From a virus (Duplodnaviria; Heunggongvirae; Uroviricota; Caudoviricetes), in the IMG/VR virus record IMGVR_UViG_2778261674_000019, positions 1-5,488 of that record: a stretch of DNA of 5,488 nucleotides. One strand, written 5' to 3'. Shown here one piece after another: positions 1 through 5,488 of the stretch. Numbering within the stretch: the first letter of the stretch is position 1; each line of letters begins with the position of its first letter. The notes beneath the pieces are model-generated. The model did no database searches. It was not told where the DNA came from and was given only the letters and a program-made list of their open reading frames with translations. Position numbers and translations under genes: made by a program.

Positions 1-297
1 CCCGCCAGCAGTGCGATGCGCCAGCATTGCCGCAAATACGGAGGCCGGGGAGTCGTAATACGCCAGCAGTGATTCTCCGTGTGGTGTCAGGTAGTGCAAC
101 GCCAGCCCGTGTGGTGTGAAGTCCACGCGGTAGCAGTCGTCTACTGTGAAATAAAGGGTGTCTGCATTCTCCGGTTTTGTGGTGCGTGCTCTGTTGTCAC
201 GACCACGGATGTAGAGATCAAATAATCCCTGAAGAACGGGAGCCAGACGGGTGTCCTGTGTGCGCACCCATCTTGTGAAGTCATGAGCGTCAATCAT
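1..297 (-). CDS. Hypothetical protein, 5' end only (3' end beyond left edge); sits where an antirepressor would in an immI-like module
   Basis: Open - strand frame from ATG at 297..295 to position 1 with no stop (99 codons visible, MIDAHDFTRWVRTQDTRLAPVLQGLFDLYIRGRDN...). SD-like AAAGAGAA about 8 nt upstream. Same frame and strand as the 76-aa gene, 72 nt downstream of its stop. Not in the ORF track, presumably because no stop is in the window. Confidence 0.5.
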   Translation of the reverse strand, partial: MIDAHDFTRWVRTQDTRLAPVLQGLFDLYIRGRDNRARTTKPENADTLYFTVDDCYRVDFTPHGLALHYLTPHGESLLAYYDSPASVFAAMLAHRTAGG

Positions 298-369
298 GCT
301 GCAATTCTCTTTACTACAGATGTGCGAAGGCCTCCCGCCGCAAGGTGCAGGAAAGGCCCGGAACAGGAA

Positions 370-600
370 TTAATGGAGTTTGTTTTGCTGCTGGAAGAGT
401 TGTTGCAGCTCGCGCAGATCATCCGCCAGATAGCTGAAAACAGAGGCGGAATAGATGTTCGATAGCGCGTGGCTGCGCTCATGCAGCATATTGATGTGCA
501 TGATTTGCGCGACGCGTGATGCGCGGAAAAGTCTACGGTTGATTTCAGTCTGGATGTGACGACGCTCCGCGATAGCGCGGTGCTGTTTGCGGTTTGCCAT
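370..600 (-). CDS. Small basic protein (76 aa, R/H/Q-rich), unknown function; sits where icd would in a P1 immI-like module
   Basis: ORF-track ORF with ATG at 600..598 and SD GAAGAGG (rc of 610..616) about 10 nt upstream. No family recognised from the sequence. Confidence 0.6.
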   Translation of the reverse strand: MANRKQHRAIAERRHIQTEINRRLFRASRVAQIMHINMLHERSHALSNIYSASVFSYLADDLRELQQLFQQQNKLH

Positions 601-608
601 GGTGTTTG

Positions 609-660
609 GCCTCTTCGTTTGTGAGTTTTTGGATACTCACCAACCAGAGTTGAGAATCTC
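609..660 (-). promoter_or_regulatory. Translation-initiation region of the 76-aa gene carrying two putative antisense target boxes (b2 CAAACGAAGA overlapping the SD, a2 UUCUCAAC) separated by a small hairpin
   Basis: b2 is rc of 612..621 and is complementary to the 12-nt loop of the structured domain (695..706). a2 is rc of 649..656 and is complementary to the single-stranded stretch at 682..689. Hairpin GTGAG-N10-CTCAC at 621..640. Confidence 0.4.
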
Positions 661-665
661 GGGGT

Positions 666-741
666 GGCGAGACGTACGGGGTTCTCAACACCGGCAAACG
701 AAGAAACCGGCCCGACCGAAGTCGGCCCCGTACGCCCCACC
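666..741 (-). ncRNA. Candidate c4-like antisense RNA domain (~76 nt)
   Basis: On the - strand, GGUGGGGCGUACGGGG (rc of 726..741) pairs with CCCCGUACGUCUCGCC (rc of 666..681) as a 16-bp closing helix with 3 G-U pairs. Inside are a C(UUCG)G tetraloop hairpin (712..725), a CCGG/CCGG stem with 12-nt loop UUUCUUCGUUUG (691..710) and a single-stranded GUUGAGAA (682..689). The loop and linker are complementary to boxes present twice nearby. Strand and exact ends are inferred. Confidence 0.35.
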
Positions 742-770
742 ATAATTCGTGTGCGAAAAAGACGTGGCAA
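742..770 (-). promoter_or_regulatory. Candidate sigma70 promoter, leftward: -35 TTGCCA (rc of 765..770), 17-bp spacer, -10 AATTAT (rc of 742..747)
   Basis: Hexamer match only; 5/6 for -35 and 4/6 for -10. Would start transcription at the 5' side of the structured domain. Confidence 0.25.
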
Positions 771-781
771 TACAGTACGCA

Positions 782-803
782 CAAAAAAACCGCTGGCGCG
801 GTT
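782..803 (-). terminator. Intrinsic terminator for the leftward early operon
   Basis: On the - strand: AACCGC-GCCA-GCGGTT hairpin (6-bp stem, 4-nt loop) followed by a U-tract of 7 in total. On the + strand it is preceded by A7 with no T-run after it, so it is unidirectional. The stem is short, so strength is uncertain. Confidence 0.4.
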
Positions 804-808
804 GTGCG

Positions 809-836
809 CTTCGTTTGTCAGCAGGTTGAGAATCCC
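809..836 (-). promoter_or_regulatory. Upstream copy of the two target boxes (b1 ACAAACGAAG, a1 GAUUCUCAAC) in the 3' region of the early operon
   Basis: Direct repeats of the boxes next to the 76-aa gene start: CTTCGTTTGT at 613..622 and 809..818; GTTGAGAATC at 649..658 and 825..834. Confidence 0.35.
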
Positions 837-862
837 GGCACCCGTTTTATGAGGTGCAGCAG

Positions 863-892
863 AAATGTAACCTGACTGATTGCGGCATGGCA
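863..892 (-). promoter_or_regulatory. Second candidate leftward promoter: -35 TTGCCA (rc of 887..892), ~18-bp spacer, -10 TACATT
   Basis: Hexamer match only. Would drive a transcript containing a1/b1, the terminator-like hairpin, the structured domain and a2/b2. Confidence 0.2.
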
Positions 893-925
893 AGCGGTTT
901 TTTTGTGTGTGCATGCTCTGATTTC

Positions 926-1225
926 TTACTGGTTCAGAAAAAAATCAAAAACCTTGTCAATGCGTTGCAACAGCTCTTGCTGTATTGCTTCCGGCGTTTC
1001 CGGTTCGCCTGGCGCCTCCAATGTCGCGCAGAAATCATCGATTTCATGATGGAGCGTCAGGCGAATGGCAGGAGCCGTGGTTCTGGCGTGCTCCAGCTCA
1101 TCCAGCAATGCCAGCACCGCAGACGGCGAGAGCATTGCGCGAAATGCCAGTAATTTTTGAGGTGTTGCCATTCGTTGCAGGGCAAATGCCAGTTCGCGTA
1201 GCTTCTGGTGGTTGATGGTGCTCAT
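926..1225 (-). CDS. Ead/Ea22-like prophage protein (99 aa)
   Basis: ORF-track ORF. Start ATG overlaps the upstream stop as ATGA. Contains the motif SPSAVLALLDELE, which I recall as characteristic of Ead/Ea22-like proteins of lambdoid prophages; family call is from memory. Confidence 0.6.
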   Translation of the reverse strand: MSTINHQKLRELAFALQRMATPQKLLAFRAMLSPSAVLALLDELEHARTTAPAIRLTLHHEIDDFCATLEAPGEPETPEAIQQELLQRIDKVFDFFLNQ

Positions 1226-1488
1226 GTTCTGGCTTCCTTCAGTAGCTGGTTAAACATGTGAGTAAGTGGATTGCTACACCCGAACGGCATCGGGTTTACG
1301 TGGTAAGAAGCCTGGCCTCCAGTTTTGCGAGCGCGACCACCTGTGCTGCGGTTTGTTCTGATGACTAAGCCGCCGCGCCAAAGTTGGCGTAACTCAGCAT
1401 TAATGGCTGTGGTTGGAGTATTCAGTGCTGCTGCGATTTCTCCGCCGCTACAACCCGGATGGGTAGCGATGTAGTCCAGAATGGTCAT
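1222..1488 (-). CDS. Probable winged-helix DNA-binding protein (88 aa)
   Basis: ORF-track ORF. ATGA start/stop overlap with the upstream gene. N-terminal ILDYIATHPGCSGGEIAAAL...LRQLWRGGLVIR resembles a winged HTH; Gly/Arg-rich basic tail. Confidence 0.6.
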   Translation of the reverse strand: MTILDYIATHPGCSGGEIAAALNTPTTAINAELRQLWRGGLVIRTNRSTGGRARKTGGQASYHVNPMPFGCSNPLTHMFNQLLKEART

Positions 1489-1688
1489 CTGCGTGGCTCC
1501 TGTACCTGTCGGATAAGATTCACCCGCGCCACGTTGGTGGCGCAGAAATAAGTGCCGTCAGTGAGGTAGATGTGGTGTGCATCCTTTTCCGAACGATGTT
1601 TGTCGATAGTGGTAATCAGTCGTTCGTCGACCTCGTATTCGCGCCCTCTGGAGGTAAAGCGAACGACGGGGAAATGCTTAATTGCCAT
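1485..1688 (-). CDS. Hypothetical protein (67 aa)
   Basis: ORF-track ORF with SD AAAGGGGG about 5 nt upstream of ATG 1688; stop overlaps the next start. Confidence 0.6.
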   Translation of the reverse strand: MAIKHFPVVRFTSRGREYEVDERLITTIDKHRSEKDAHHIYLTDGTYFCATNVARVNLIRQVQEPRR

Positions 1689-1711
1689 TGCGCCCCCTTT
1701 GTCCAGTAACC

Positions 1712-2122
1712 CTATGCGTTAAATACGGTGTGTCGGGCGTCATCAATGAATGCAACTTGAGAGCGCTCTATCAGGCGGAGATTTGTCAGAAGCGCTGATT
1801 CCCTTATGGGGTGAGGAGTGATCAGGTATTTGTCCTGTAATCCGGCAATAATGGTGTATCGCTGTAGCTCTGAGCCAATTGTGTAAATAAGGCGTCCGGT
1901 GTTAGATAAATCCAGTTCGGTGACTGGTTGAGTTTTGAAAAGCGTAAGTTCCGCACCCTGTTCTTCGATGATTTTGGCGGCTTCTGCCGTGACTTTTGCG
2001 ACTATCATTGTGTGGGTCGCGACGTCTATATGATTATTTGCTACGGCTTTTTTCGCTACTTCGCTTTCCATCTTTGAAATTTCTTTCAGTGCTCTGATGA
2101 TACCTTCTTCTTTTGCGTGCAT
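1712..2122 (-). CDS. Hypothetical protein (136 aa)
   Basis: ORF-track ORF with SD GGAGAT about 7 nt upstream of ATG 2122. Follows a 93-bp AT-rich gap. No family recognised. Confidence 0.65.
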   Translation of the reverse strand: MHAKEEGIIRALKEISKMESEVAKKAVANNHIDVATHTMIVAKVTAEAAKIIEEQGAELTLFKTQPVTELDLSNTGRLIYTIGSELQRYTIIAGLQDKYLITPHPIRESALLTNLRLIERSQVAFIDDARHTVFNA

Positions 2123-2215
2123 TTTTGTATCTCCGTTATCTGCGTGTGCGAATACCTCCGTTAATACGGATGGTTTTCACGTTTTCTTATTTAATTTGAT
2201 GTTTTATTTGTATCG

Positions 2216-2329
2216 TTATTCACCAGTGAAAAAACGTTCAATCTTTTTTACTGAATGAATAATTCGCATAATCCCAATGGCGCAGGCCACTGAAATAATC
2301 AGAGCAAGCCATGAAATAAATATACTCAT
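2216..2329 (-). CDS. Small single-pass membrane peptide (37 aa, MSIFISWLALIISVACAIGIMRIIHSVKKIERFFTGE), candidate membrane-active toxin or kil-type peptide
   Basis: Hand-translated; below the ORF-track size cutoff. ATG 2329..2327 overlaps the TGA stop of the upstream gene (2326..2328) as ATGA. Hydrophobic residues 3-21, then a basic tail. Confidence 0.4.
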   Translation of the reverse strand: MSIFISWLALIISVACAIGIMRIIHSVKKIERFFTGE

Positions 2330-2568
2330 GCGATATTCCCCAGCTTATACGGTTCAATATGTTCCCCGCATTCTGCGGCACAGATTAGCTCGGAAAGTTC
2401 GTTAAGTGCATCCAGATCATCAGCGTAAAAAGCCACGTCATACAGACTCCGGATTGCCCTGGTCAATGAGTCACGGGCTGCACGTTCAGCATGAGCGCCT
2501 GATGCACTTAAGCGAAAATAAAAACGCTCAAGTGCTTTGTTAATGAGAGTTTTATATTCTTTGCCCAT
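2326..2568 (-). CDS. Hypothetical protein (80 aa)
   Basis: ORF-track ORF with SD AAAGGG upstream of ATG 2568; 11 nt after the previous stop. Confidence 0.6.
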   Translation of the reverse strand: MGKEYKTLINKALERFYFRLSASGAHAERAARDSLTRAIRSLYDVAFYADDLDALNELSELICAAECGEHIEPYKLGNIA

Positions 2569-2579
2569 CGCAACGCCCT

Positions 2580-2867
2580 TTAATCTGCTTTCTGAATTTC
2601 AGCTTCTGAATCCATACAAATAATTTCGATATATGGTTCATCGCCATTAACCTGACGTGCCTTTTCAGCTTCACTAATGATTTCTCGTACGGTCTGGTAC
2701 GGAAGTTCCACAAGCAGTCGCGTGCCGTTCAGATAAACGTAAGTGGCTTCGTTGGCTCCGTTTTTACCCGCCGGAGCCACTCCATCAATAGCGGATGCGC
2801 GTAATAACAGTTCACCGCGAAAATCAATAAAACGGATAAATACACCTTGTGCATGCTCTTTGGTCAT
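2580..2867 (-). CDS. Hypothetical protein (95 aa)
   Basis: ORF-track ORF with SD AGGTGA 3-4 nt upstream of ATG 2867; 10 nt after the previous stop. Confidence 0.6.
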   Translation of the reverse strand: MTKEHAQGVFIRFIDFRGELLLRASAIDGVAPAGKNGANEATYVYLNGTRLLVELPYQTVREIISEAEKARQVNGDEPYIEIICMDSEAEIQKAD

Positions 2868-2877
2868 AAATCACCTG

Positions 2878-3231
2878 TTATAAATCAGTCTGTTTAATAA
2901 AACTCTGTCCACGCAGCAGACGATCAACCGTGCGAAGCGCTTCGTATAATGTGAAATCCTGCCCGAACTGATTGTCGCCGCTGCTTAGAGCAAAAATGCG
3001 GTTTCCAGTAAACGGATTGCGTGGGCATCTGTGAACCACGATTCCAGCCTTCTCAATCAGCCAGGTATGCTCGCCGATTTGTTTTACAGCGTGGCCATCC
3101 GGCGTTGCGTGTGTATCACTCAGGCTGTAGCGGATGTTGCTGCGTGATGCACTGGTAGCGAAACGGTTAGCATGGCGTTCCGCCCCGTTGCGGAAACGTT
3201 GTTGTGAAGAATTACGCTGTTGCTTATTCAT
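2878..3231 (-). CDS. Hypothetical protein (117 aa from ATG 3231; 120 aa if the GTG at 3240 is used), basic Q/R/S-rich N-terminus
   Basis: ORF-track ORF 2878..3240. The in-frame ATG at 3231 has a better SD (GAGGTG about 9 nt upstream). Confidence 0.6.
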   Translation of the reverse strand: MNKQQRNSSQQRFRNGAERHANRFATSASRSNIRYSLSDTHATPDGHAVKQIGEHTWLIEKAGIVVHRCPRNPFTGNRIFALSSGDNQFGQDFTLYEALRTVDRLLRGQSFIKQTDL

Positions 3232-3242
3232 TTTTTGCACCT

Positions 3243-3449
3243 CTACCCGATAAACCAGATGACAAACACCATGATCATTGCCCCAATGGCAGCCGGAAAA
3301 AGACCTCTGGCATAAGCAGTGATGTATTCAACATTGAGAGCCATAAAGCGTTCCTCATACCCTGTTAATTTGCGAAGAAGCCAAATCACTACCACGCCCA
3401 CTTCAAAAAGAACGAGGGTCAAAATGATATTGGTGATGTTGTTGGTCAT
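3243..3449 (-). CDS. Small two-helix membrane protein (68 aa)
   Basis: Internal ATG (3449..3447) of the track ORF 3243..3698; the upstream part of that ORF overlaps the cox-position gene out of frame. Two hydrophobic helices (NIILTLVLFEVGVVVIWLL and LFPAAIGAMIMVFVIWFIG). Starts 10 nt after the previous stop; SD is weak and distant (GAAGG at -17). Confidence 0.5.
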   Translation of the reverse strand: MTNNITNIILTLVLFEVGVVVIWLLRKLTGYEERFMALNVEYITAYARGLFPAAIGAMIMVFVIWFIG

Positions 3450-3459
3450 TTTTGTGTGT

Positions 3460-3981
3460 TTAGTTGCCTTCGCTGCTTTTGAGTCGCTCCAGCTTTGAGC
3501 TTCTACCCATATAAACCCGTTTTCCGTTAACGGTCTGGCAGTCTTCTTTGTCGGCTGGAGAGAACTTTCTTTTCTGGCGGTCATACGTCCAGTAACTTTT
3601 CCAGTTGTGCCATTCTGGGGGCTCGTACTCTGGTAGCTCATCAGCCAACTTGTCCCACTCTTTGGCGTTAAACCACCATACTCCGTCTGAGTTTTCATCT
3701 TCTGGGTTTGTGCGCGTTTTGTGTCCCGGCATTTGACCGCGATGAATGGCTACGCGCAGTGCAGATTTTGTTAGGCCAATATATGCCGCGCCTTTTTCCA
3801 GAGAGCAAAGCCCGGCGATCGGACCATCCAGCCGTAAAGTCGCTCCTTTTTTGTAGGAGCGCTTTTTCTTGTTTTCTTCGTGTTCGTCGTCGTTGGCGGC
3901 ATCAATGGATCCGCTGAGTGTGTCACTTTCCTGAAGTGGTTGGTGGTCAGATAACTCTTTATCGGCAATGAAGTCCCGCAT
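3460..3981 (-). CDS. Excisionase-family HTH DNA-binding protein in the cox/apl position (173 aa)
   Basis: ORF-track ORF with strong SD AAGAGGA about 6 nt upstream of ATG 3981. Central segment GAAYIGLTKSALRVAIHRGQMPGHK...DGVWWFNAKEWDKL resembles Xis/AlpA-type HTH domains. First gene of the operon divergent from the repressor. Confidence 0.65.
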   Translation of the reverse strand: MRDFIADKELSDHQPLQESDTLSGSIDAANDDEHEENKKKRSYKKGATLRLDGPIAGLCSLEKGAAYIGLTKSALRVAIHRGQMPGHKTRTNPEDENSDGVWWFNAKEWDKLADELPEYEPPEWHNWKSYWTYDRQKRKFSPADKEDCQTVNGKRVYMGRSSKLERLKSSEGN

Positions 3982-4084
3982 TTGTTATCCTCTTGCGTTG
4001 GTGCGCTTGTTGCGCCTTGTGATGGTTTGTTTTGGTTTGTTTTCTTCACCGTGTGGTGAAGAGCGAAAAGAGGATACTCATCGT
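3982..4084. promoter_or_regulatory. Divergent lysis/lysogeny switch region (Pe-like and Pc-like promoters with operators)
   Basis: 103-bp gap between divergent start codons. Tandem imperfect repeats TTGGTGCGC/TTGTTGCGC (3998..4015), perfect tandem GGTTTGTTTT x2 (4024..4043), palindrome TCTTCACC-GTGT-GGTGAAGA (4043..4062), and inverted AAGAGGATA SD boxes at each end (3986..3994 rc, 4068..4076). Promoter hexamers not confidently placed. Confidence 0.6.
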
Positions 4085-4426
4085 ATGGTGAACATGTCAA
4101 GAGATTACGCCAAAAAACTAAAGGCGATCAGAAATGCGGAAAAACTTACACAATCTCAGTTTTCGCAAGTAACGGGGGTTTCTGTAGGGACTATAGGAAA
4201 TTATGAGTCTGGATATAAACCTGCGCGAATTGAGGTTGTAGAAAAAGTAATCCAGGTCGAGCGATTCGAAAAATACACTATGTGGATACTTCACGACAAA
4301 ACATTTCCCGCTGCCGGGCAGGTTGCTCCGGCTCTCTCTCTTGATGGCTCTATTCAGTCGGAGGGCGATCAGGTTTCAATCGGCATTACCCAAAAATCAC
4401 CCCGATCAGGCCGCAATGTTGGCTGA
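4085..4426 (+). CDS. P2 C-like immunity repressor, HTH (114 aa)
   Basis: Internal ATG of track ORF 3968..4426, with SD AAGAGGA (4068..4074) 10 nt upstream. Resembles phage P2 repressor C as I recall it (KYTMWILHDK, AGQVAPAL). Directly upstream of and co-directional with int, as in P2. Confidence 0.8.
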   Translation: MVNMSRDYAKKLKAIRNAEKLTQSQFSQVTGVSVGTIGNYESGYKPARIEVVEKVIQVERFEKYTMWILHDKTFPAAGQVAPALSLDGSIQSEGDQVSIGITQKSPRSGRNVG

Positions 4427-4495
4427 CGCTACACATTGAGCGAATTACATCTCGCAAGGAGTGTTTAGTTAATTTATCCGTTGGAGGGGCTAATC

Positions 4496-5488
4496 ATGTC
4501 GATTAAGCAACTCAAAGACGGACGTTATCAGGTTGATGTAAGGCCTCAGGGTGCGGAAGGAAAGCGGATTCGAAAAATCTTCACCCTGAAATCAAAGGCT
4601 CAGGAGTTTGAGAAGTATGTGTTACAGAACTTCCATGACAAGCCATGGCAGGCTAAGCCAGCTGATCAGCGGCGATTATCAGAGTTACTTGATGCGTGGT
4701 GGATGCTTGACGGGCGTAATCAGGCTTACGGGGATAGCTACAGGGTCAGGTTAGGGAAGGTTATTCGTGAAATGGGGGATCCTCGTGCCAGTCAGATGAC
4801 GCGAAAATTTATGCTCGAGTATCGGTCAGAGAAATTACAGGCCGGATTAATGCCGTCCAGTATTAATCGTGACTTATGCGTTCTGTCTACCATGTTCACG
4901 GTGCTGATTGAAGCTGAGGTCTTTCACAACGCGAACCCTGTACGCGGTATACGCAAGCTGAAAGTTCAGAACACAGAGATGGCCTTTCTTTCTGATGATG
5001 AGATTGAGCGGCTTCTTGAGCGGCTGGAGGGGGATGCGCGTCGTGTTGCCATTCTGTGTCTTTCTACTGGTGCCCGATGGAGTGAAGCATCAGAACTACG
5101 TGGAGAGCATATCGTTGGCAACCGGGTTACGTTCTTTAACACCAAAAACGGAAAATCCCGTTCGGTTCCTGTGGCGGATTCGGTTGTGCCTCTGATTAAA
5201 ACCCGTCGAACGGGGTTGTTGTATCAGGTTGATTATCTGAAGTTCCGGGAGATTCTTCAGGAGGTGAAACCGGATTTACCGAAGGGGCAGGCTACGCATG
5301 TCATGCGTCATACATTTGCCACACACTTTATGATGAATGGCGGAAATATTGTTACGTTGCAACGAATCCTGGGGCACGCAACGATTCAGCAAACAATGAC
5401 GTACGCTCATTTTTCGCCGGACTTCTTACAGGACGCGATCAACTTTAATCCGCTGGCTGAAAGTGTCCATAAACTGTCCATCGATTAG
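4496..5488 (+). CDS. int: Tyrosine recombinase, phage P2 Int family (330 aa)
   Basis: ATG at 4496 with SD GGAGGGG 6 nt upstream; the track's TTG at 4481 is less likely. Strong resemblance to P2 Int (MSIKQLKDGRYQVDVRP..., ILCLSTGARWSEA, HVMRHTFATHFMMNGGNIVTLQRILGH, TMTYAHF with the catalytic Tyr). Stop TAG is the last codon of the window. Confidence 0.95.
   Translation: MSIKQLKDGRYQVDVRPQGAEGKRIRKIFTLKSKAQEFEKYVLQNFHDKPWQAKPADQRRLSELLDAWWMLDGRNQAYGDSYRVRLGKVIREMGDPRASQMTRKFMLEYRSEKLQAGLMPSSINRDLCVLSTMFTVLIEAEVFHNANPVRGIRKLKVQNTEMAFLSDDEIERLLERLEGDARRVAILCLSTGARWSEASELRGEHIVGNRVTFFNTKNGKSRSVPVADSVVPLIKTRRTGLLYQVDYLKFREILQEVKPDLPKGQATHVMRHTFATHFMMNGGNIVTLQRILGHATIQQTMTYAHFSPDFLQDAINFNPLAESVHKLSID

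Follow-up and report, generated by a model that had tools for sequence, protein, structure and literature searches.

The window analysed here is the whole 5,488-nt stretch at positions 1 to 5,488 of IMG/VR virus record IMGVR_UViG_2778261674_000019, which by its sequence is the integrase arm of a P88-like prophage (genus Xuanwuvirus, P2 family, Peduoviridae). Directly after its Cox-family gene, on the minus strand, lies a block of five small genes. The best overall explanation of this block, given a probability of roughly 0.42, is that it consists of a conserved core, an insert and the cargo of a variable slot, set in the early operon that P88-like elements would transcribe from the promoter Pe, and that it encodes host-directed accessory effectors of the early lytic phase. 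The block is best explained as the promoter-proximal part of that operon, holding small genes of three different evolutionary ages. Its members are as follows.

3243..3449, minus strand: 68-aa protein with two hydrophobic helices (phrog_14475, E 1e-27)

2878..3231, minus strand: DUF4761 protein, 117 aa, first gene of the conserved core (PF15958)

2580..2867, minus strand: acidic 95-aa alpha/beta protein, isoelectric point (pI) 4.7 (phrog_3800, E 9.5e-62)

2326..2568, minus strand: DUF4754 protein, 80 aa, core gene (PF15946)

2216..2329, minus strand: 37-aa single-pass membrane peptide with one Kyte-Doolittle segment, its start overlapping the DUF4754 stop (ATGA)

These five open reading frames (68, 117, 95, 80 and 37 aa) follow the 173-aa Cox-family gene with the coordinates, lengths and spacing (10-11 nt gaps or overlap) given by a first-pass annotation of this DNA. 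Read from the sequence, the gap between cox and the 68-aa gene is 10 nt, the next three are 11, 10 and 11 nt, and the last junction is a 4-nt ATGA overlap. For comparison, 88 related loci were gathered from phage records, E. coli genomes, IMG/VR and species-representative genomes. The spacing is kept in them: 10 nt separate DUF4761 from the 95-aa gene in 84 of 85 loci, 11 nt separate the 95-aa gene from DUF4754 in 77 of 83, and the -4 overlap between DUF4754 and the 37-aa peptide is found in 83 of 84. A plausible Shine-Dalgarno sequence stands ahead of each start (for example GAGGTG before the DUF4761 ATG at 3231), with the exception of the 68-aa gene, where it is weak and distant. Kyte-Doolittle analysis in 19-residue windows gave two hydrophobic segments in the 68-aa protein (residues 3-30 and 45-68), one in the 37-aa peptide and none in the other three proteins, so that the two small membrane proteins described earlier, one two-helix and one single-pass, were both recovered.

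Selection was assessed by the Nei-Gojobori method across 89 loci, as pooled pairwise ratios of nonsynonymous to synonymous substitution (dN/dS) that ignore phylogeny. The values were 0.33 for the 68-aa gene, 0.10 for DUF4761, 0.22 for the 95-aa gene, 0.17 for DUF4754 and 0.25 for the 37-aa gene, similar to or below those of int (0.27) and C (0.39). Reading-frame lengths are also fixed: the peptide is 37 aa in 35 of 38 distinct alleles, the 68-aa protein keeps its length in 18 of 20, and DUF4754 is always 80 aa. Because lengths are kept and dN/dS is low across the 89 loci, the genes are real beyond chance. All five are genuine and under purifying selection (dN/dS 0.10-0.33), and the earlier reservation that the small reading frames might lack conservation at the protein level was not borne out. 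In-frame deletion fusions of neighbouring block genes also occur in public assemblies (P0141, P0213, P0271 and P0225), joining the 95-aa protein to DUF4754, DUF4761 to DUF4754, or DUF4761 to the 95-aa protein.

Within P88-like elements the order DUF4761, 95-aa gene, DUF4754, 37-aa peptide is almost invariant (89 loci). Diverged lineages keep a smaller set. Two of them, the P0112 lineage and P0116, which is the commonest diverged DUF4761 lineage (837 collection blocks indexed), have DUF4761, DUF4754 and a 41-aa homologue of the transmembrane peptide but not the 95-aa gene. Salmonella and Citrobacter loci carry DUF4761, an 88-aa homologue, DUF4754 and then another kind of single-pass peptide, about 50 aa long, the ATG of which overlaps the DUF4754 stop here too. 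One further locus (L086) has DUF4761, an 80-aa protein weakly and colinearly similar to DUF4754 (hhalign E 0.005) and a 61-aa single-pass peptide. Because diverged lineages retain the core without the 95-aa gene and exchange the type of peptide, the durable unit is DUF4761, DUF4754 and a coupled small membrane peptide, and not one five-gene unit. The first-pass annotation had raised the question whether the block is conserved as a unit among relatives; four of the five genes do travel together in P88-like elements, and the 68-aa and 95-aa genes are optional. The 95-aa gene is a lineage-specific insert of the P88 sub-lineage between DUF4761 and DUF4754.

The optional 68-aa gene lies outside this unit. 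Only about 39 of the 89 loci have it. Among 5426 complete E. coli genomes it occurs in 332, the other block genes in 1383. It lies between about 11 and about 780 nt from DUF4761 and follows any of three different cox alleles. The stretch from C to DUF4761 itself varies from about 400 to about 2000 nt and holds unrelated cargo, some of it on the opposite strand. Because frequency, cox partners, distance and slot cargo all vary, the 68-aa gene is one among alternative cargos of a variable slot between cox and DUF4761, and the earlier picture of a unit bracketed by two membrane peptides is not supported. The slot after cox (window 3232-3459; also L006, L009, L019, L025, L035, L062 and L081) measures from 0 to about 1.5 kb, and its cargo includes opposite-strand genes of about 60-219 aa without significant Pfam or PADLOC match. 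It looks like a hotspot for morons or accessory genes in P88-like phages. A duplicated stub of the DUF4761 N-terminus (MNKQQQNSEPH...) borders several of the inserts, a hint of recombination at this sequence.

The proteins of the block are full-length members of DUF4761, DUF4754 and PHROGs 2492, 3800, 2549 and 14475. Pfam scores were 233.8 bits for DUF4761 (PF15958; cut-off 27; model 1-105 of 105) and 181.7 bits for DUF4754 (PF15946; cut-off 27; model 1-80 of 80), and no Pfam match was found for the 95-aa protein, which belongs to PHROG 3800. The three soluble proteins, which the first-pass annotation could not place, can hence be assigned to families, none of which has an assigned function. 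They scarcely occur outside prophages of Escherichia, Salmonella, Citrobacter, Cronobacter and Enterobacter. With the three soluble families as queries, word-indexed searches of 5.8 billion proteins yielded close relatives only, in Escherichia, Shigella, Salmonella, Citrobacter and Cronobacter.

Structural models of the soluble proteins were built on shallow alignments of close homologues. DUF4761 has a pI of 10.5. Its N-terminal 33 residues are predicted to be disordered and basic, and this arginine-rich tail is highly conserved (R14, G16, E18, R19, H20, T26-A28, R34 and Y35, among others). After the tail the model shows a five-strand sheet and a C-terminal helix, with a predicted local distance difference test score (pLDDT) of about 85. 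The dN/dS of 0.10 represents the strongest constraint in the block. From the model, the disordered and conserved basic tail may be suggested to serve as a partner-binding motif. The family is rare outside its own lineages, being present in only 3 of 185,579 species-representative genomes. A short, 68-aa form occurs in Salmonella phages SEN4/SEN5 and Enterobacter phage phiT5282H, with about 40% identity over the folded domain; the form in SEN5 and phiT5282H is without the basic tail.

The fold of the 95-aa protein was obtained through the natural in-frame fusion P0141 (AlphaFold2), as five strands, a helix and a sixth strand with pLDDT 85-92. An exhaustive profile search of 1.84 billion proteins with this family gave only 19 representatives and no informative domain fusion. 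Three further ideas about the protein were set aside. For an FlbD/SwrD-like fold, seven family members gave no Pfam hit at E up to 10 (HMMER), and no solved structure matched the protein. Paralogy of DUF4761 and the 95-aa protein was unsupported, as was a hairpin motif common to the 95-aa protein, a 67-aa protein and Dhr.

DUF4754 is acidic (pI 5.3) and predicted to be all-helical, its helices modelled at pLDDT 58-74. MAFFT misaligned the 95-aa and DUF4754 families to P0141, and the DUF4754 half of that model carried no alignment. Structure comparison of DUF4754 gave generic helical-bundle matches only. The 37-aa peptide has a conserved basic C-terminal tail (GIMRIIHSVKKIERFFTGE), with the conservation pattern GIMRII..VKKIERFFTG. 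Fixed ATGA coupling would lead to DUF4754 and the peptide being made in fixed proportion, and the acidic DUF4754 could plausibly be anchored at the membrane through the peptide's basic cytoplasmic tail. The coupling, the conserved tail and the acidity of DUF4754 together suggest a membrane-anchored pair in fixed proportion. If the peptide were of the type I toxin kind, a cis-encoded antisense RNA would be expected to control its mRNA. An Rfam scan of the block gave no match, and a weak plus-strand promoter-like site (2074-2101) and a hairpin (2157-2170) are situated beyond the 3' end of the peptide gene, so not antisense to it.

Profile searches and structure prediction, advised earlier for the three soluble proteins, were carried out, and neither the sequences nor the predicted folds revealed a function. 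Only families of unknown function were matched in Pfam and PHROGs, and no block protein had an NCBIfam hit. In PADLOC-DB four of the five were without hit, and DUF4754 gave one stray match (11.4 bits, E 0.012) that does not place it in a defence family. PDB profile searches with the three soluble families were empty or at noise level, and the modelled soluble proteins had no significant structural analogue among solved structures. No paper on DUF4761, DUF4754 or the protein accessions was found in the literature library searched, and the papers on P88, phiSM and CP-933T do not address the block genes.

The operon context comes from the rest of the window and its relatives. The window belongs to the P88-like early operons by both synteny and nucleotide identity: P88-type Escherichia phages match 85-86% of it at about 94% identity. 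Annotated relatives have the order integrase, C-type repressor, Cox, small-gene string, 'derepression protein' and replication endonuclease A, and the same order is found in P88, in 569R5 and in E. coli prophages adjoining dmsA. Through these relatives, the int, C, cox and A neighbourhood of the window matches the P2 gene order. The features around the block are as follows; to the left of and including cox (3981-3460) all genes are on the minus strand.

4481-5488, plus strand: int

about 4094-4426, plus strand: helix-turn-helix (HTH) repressor (C)

4071..4100, minus strand: candidate early promoter Pe (TTGACA-18-TATCCT, 10/12 matches), the best promoter-like site in the window

3460..3981, minus strand: Cox-family gene, 173-aa long form, first early-operon gene (PF10743 30.6 bits, cut-off 27.5; phrog_23196 E 1e-112)

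2123..2215, minus strand: 93-nt spacer, 34% GC, closing the cassette (hairpin z = -2.9, without T-run)

Relatives of the 173-aa gene are annotated as Cox family DNA-binding protein. P2 Cox is 91 aa; the form here is extended at both ends, the added N-terminal part being acidic. Related loci have no fewer than four different cox alleles (92-175 aa) ahead of the same downstream genes.

Promoters and terminators were called by consensus scans. The site at 4071..4100 lies between repressor and cox and faces the C gene, a layout equal to the annotated face-to-face arrangement of Pe and Pc in P2; by this analogy it is a candidate for the Pe that drives cox and the block. No notable promoter or terminator was found inside the block by the same scan; one weak internal promoter-like site was seen (9/12 matches), and the overall promoter count was at chance level. 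The co-expression proposed in the first-pass annotation fits the tight gaps, the strand shared with cox and the lack of internal signals of note, and transcription from Pe would follow by analogy with P2. The block would then be transcribed only once the C repressor is lifted, as in P2. After the 37-aa gene comes the spacer, 86-93 nt in relatives and the only sizeable non-coding gap in that part of the operon. It contains no canonical coding-strand terminator by consensus scan (2123-2215), and it occupies the position at which P2 (after B) and 186 (after dhr) have annotated terminators.

In P2 the place of the block, which follows cox immediately in the Pe operon and is bounded by a terminator or spacer, is taken by orf78 and B, which confirms from the P2 annotation what had been noted earlier. 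P2 B is an essential 166-aa replication protein, and none of the block proteins resembles it. With P2 B and orf78, phmmer gave no significant match, hhalign nothing above 5% probability and tblastn no hit in the 89 loci; the best P2 pairing was B with DUF4754, at E 0.023 in a set of about 30 sequences. Coliphage 186 (Eganvirus, Peduoviridae) has cII, fil (75 aa, annotated as a cell-division inhibitor) and dhr (66 aa, annotated as a host DNA replication inhibitor) after apl, followed by a terminator. The block shares with 186 fil and dhr the small overlapping genes, the early lytic operon, the position shortly after the Cox/Apl gene and the terminator or spacer that follows. Unlike the block, 186 Fil and Dhr have no separate transmembrane peptide alongside. 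The block proteins had no phmmer hit to Fil or Dhr and nothing above 5% probability in hhalign, and no Fil, Dhr or CII homologue was detected by tblastn in the 89 P88-like loci.

A closer connection comes from SEN5 and phiT5282H, in which the order is cox, a 67-aa protein, the short DUF4761, an overlapping Fil homologue and a Dhr homologue. By this order DUF4761 is a neighbour of host-directed early genes of the phage family. The short-DUF4761 loci are at 3769-4708 in Salmonella phage SEN5 (L091) and at 3769-4707 in Enterobacter phage phiT5282H (L092); the 67-aa protein they share has a faint Dhr-like match (E 0.004 in a tiny database).

Lambda Kil, T7 Gp0.4 and Rac KilR are small early-lytic host inhibitors, and T4 Imm and Sp are early exclusion proteins of the membrane. 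With these the block has in common its size class, its presumably early expression and, for Imm and Sp, membrane location. It resembles them as a class of gene only, and homology to them was not detected. The kil, exclusion and abortive-infection roles put forward in the first-pass annotation have none of them specific support: PADLOC gave no hits that count for the block, and by analogy with P2 the Pe operon would be silent in the lysogen. Its host-takeover suggestion fares better, as a reasonable analogy through 186 fil and dhr and the neighbours in SEN5 and phiT5282H, to be set against the lack of any similarity to Fil or Dhr.

In the favoured mechanism the products would be non-structural accessory effectors of the early lytic phase, acting on host components and partly anchored in the membrane. 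A host-directed role is suggested by the operon position together with the short DUF4761 beside Fil and Dhr homologues in other Peduoviridae; that the products are non-structural early-lytic effectors aimed at the host is held tentatively, at somewhat less than even odds. None of DUF4761, DUF4754 and the peptide has a significant match among solved structures. The more specific proposal that these three form an undescribed three-part membrane-anchored effector, which halts or re-programmes an essential host process (division, envelope or replication) at lytic onset, is a long shot. Several points weigh against a host-directed role. The block has no relative in a family of known function, in NCBIfam, PADLOC or PDB, no structural analogue and no paper. 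The association with Fil and Dhr is positional only, the block proteins being unlike either. The DUF4754 model is of low confidence because no alignment was attached to it, and repression in the lysogen is taken over from P2. Finally, host takeover accounts for a conserved core at a fixed position no better than would a part in the phage's own development.

That last possibility ranks as the main rival, although it is held to be rather unlikely. The core would then act as a regulator (for example of read-through or antitermination of the early operon, or as a lysis-lysogeny modulator), or as a replication accessory replacing P2 B or 186 CII, which occupy the same position. Near-universal retention of the core at a fixed position in the lineage agrees with this, as do the constraint on DUF4761, the tightest in the block, and its conserved arginine-rich disordered tail. 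Terminator-like hairpins (at the 3' ends of the isrK and C4 matches described below) also lie downstream in the operon, before A by the order in relatives, and the 186 record notes terminators that are anti-terminated early. However, no HTH or other nucleic-acid-binding family was detected in the block, similarity to B, CII and orf78 is lacking, and the SEN5/phiT5282H form of DUF4761 dispenses with the basic tail. The 186 genes orf80 to orf84, in the dhr-A interval, are annotated as non-essential in the record, and a membrane peptide would sit oddly beside a transcription or replication factor.

Host immunity could also be the target of the acidic early proteins (95 aa and DUF4754), which would inhibit restriction or abortive-infection sensors at lytic onset. 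Small acidic proteins near Pe are likely to be expressed early, the family is tiny and taxonomically narrow, and the 95-aa gene is present in some lineages and not in others, a pattern common among accessory counter-defence genes. The acidity, however, is moderate and unlike that of a DNA mimic, no likeness to a solved anti-restriction or anti-CRISPR structure was found, and the core is conserved uniformly, without patchiness; an anti-defence role is judged improbable. Least likely of all is superinfection exclusion or abortive infection, in which the membrane peptides would block incoming phage DNA or kill infected cells. In its favour, the block has two small membrane proteins, the slot occupied by the 68-aa protein is hypervariable and holds opposite-strand genes in relatives, and T4 Imm and Sp are early-lytic membrane proteins able to exclude other phages. 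Against this, the genes belong to the Pe operon and share the strand of cox, no separate promoter was detected that would allow expression in the lysogen, PADLOC hits are lacking, and the core is conserved rather than variable. The known exclusion genes of P2, old and tin, are located elsewhere and carry the annotation of lysogenic-conversion genes, with mapped old-tin mRNA starts. Exclusion mediated by the prophage is unlikely because genes in a repressor-controlled operon should, by the P2 analogy, be silent in the lysogen.

As evidence goes, the block consists of ordinary small accessory genes of a temperate-phage early operon and is unsurprising. Public records already list the genes as DUF or hypothetical proteins, and the P88 genome shows the block. 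The new elements are the anatomy, with its core, optional insert and variable slot, and the negative result that ties the genes, by sequence or predicted fold, to nothing characterised; the anatomy tells which genes belong together for joint testing. If the products are host-directed, they would be new inhibitors, possibly with new host targets, beyond fil and dhr of the P2 family. A role in phage development would be a real departure from the P2 and 186 paradigms, and a three-part effector, if true, would represent a new class of phage-encoded bacterial growth inhibitor in very common E. coli prophages. The stretch from DUF4761 through the 95-aa gene and DUF4754 to the 37-aa gene was matched in 1383 of 5426 complete E. 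coli genomes, so that the cassette is present in about a quarter of them, O157:H7 and ST131 strains included. Occurrence on plasmids is sporadic (6 records). The block is experimentally accessible through P88 (PMC5285337) and phiSM of Citrobacter rodentium (PMC6456863), active and workable phages that carry it.

Some minor observations concern the collection and the remainder of the operon. One related locus (L008, NZ_JBQPOM010000071.1) comes from an assembly labelled as the Gram-positive Vagococcus sp. WN89Y, yet it is this enterobacterial prophage region, at 87% protein identity; the label is likely due to contamination or a mislabelled genome. Downstream of the block, the weak plus-strand promoter-like site at 2074-2101 and the hairpin at 2157-2170 might together produce a short antisense RNA against the beginning of the next gene. 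That gene, of 136 aa (1712-2122), is optional (about 38 of 89 loci) and separates the block from a second translationally coupled cassette with no assigned function. The latter (926-1688, minus strand) encodes a 67-aa protein, a MarR-like winged-helix protein of 88 aa and an Ead/Ea22-like protein of 99 aa, chained by -4 overlaps that are kept in 72 of 72 and 64 of 64 loci.

Strong Rfam matches to the C4 antisense RNA (79 bits, E 6e-15) and the Hfq-binding small RNA isrK (62 bits, E 6e-12) were found at 660-747 and 783-857, minus strand. Both are on the early-operon strand, between the Ead/Ea22-like gene and the gene for a 76-aa 'derepression protein', and in both cases a promoter-like site precedes the match and a terminator-like hairpin stands close to its 3' end. 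This layout is similar to a control module of the P1 immI or Gifsy isrK type placed before an antirepressor-like gene, and it would place terminators between Pe and the replication gene A. At the left edge of the window a partial gene (1-297, minus strand) starts at about 297 (MIDAHDF...) and runs off the edge. By eye its translation resembles the protein of about 120 aa that precedes A in relatives, which in L101-L103 has a weak hit to DUF5405, the family of P2 orf83.

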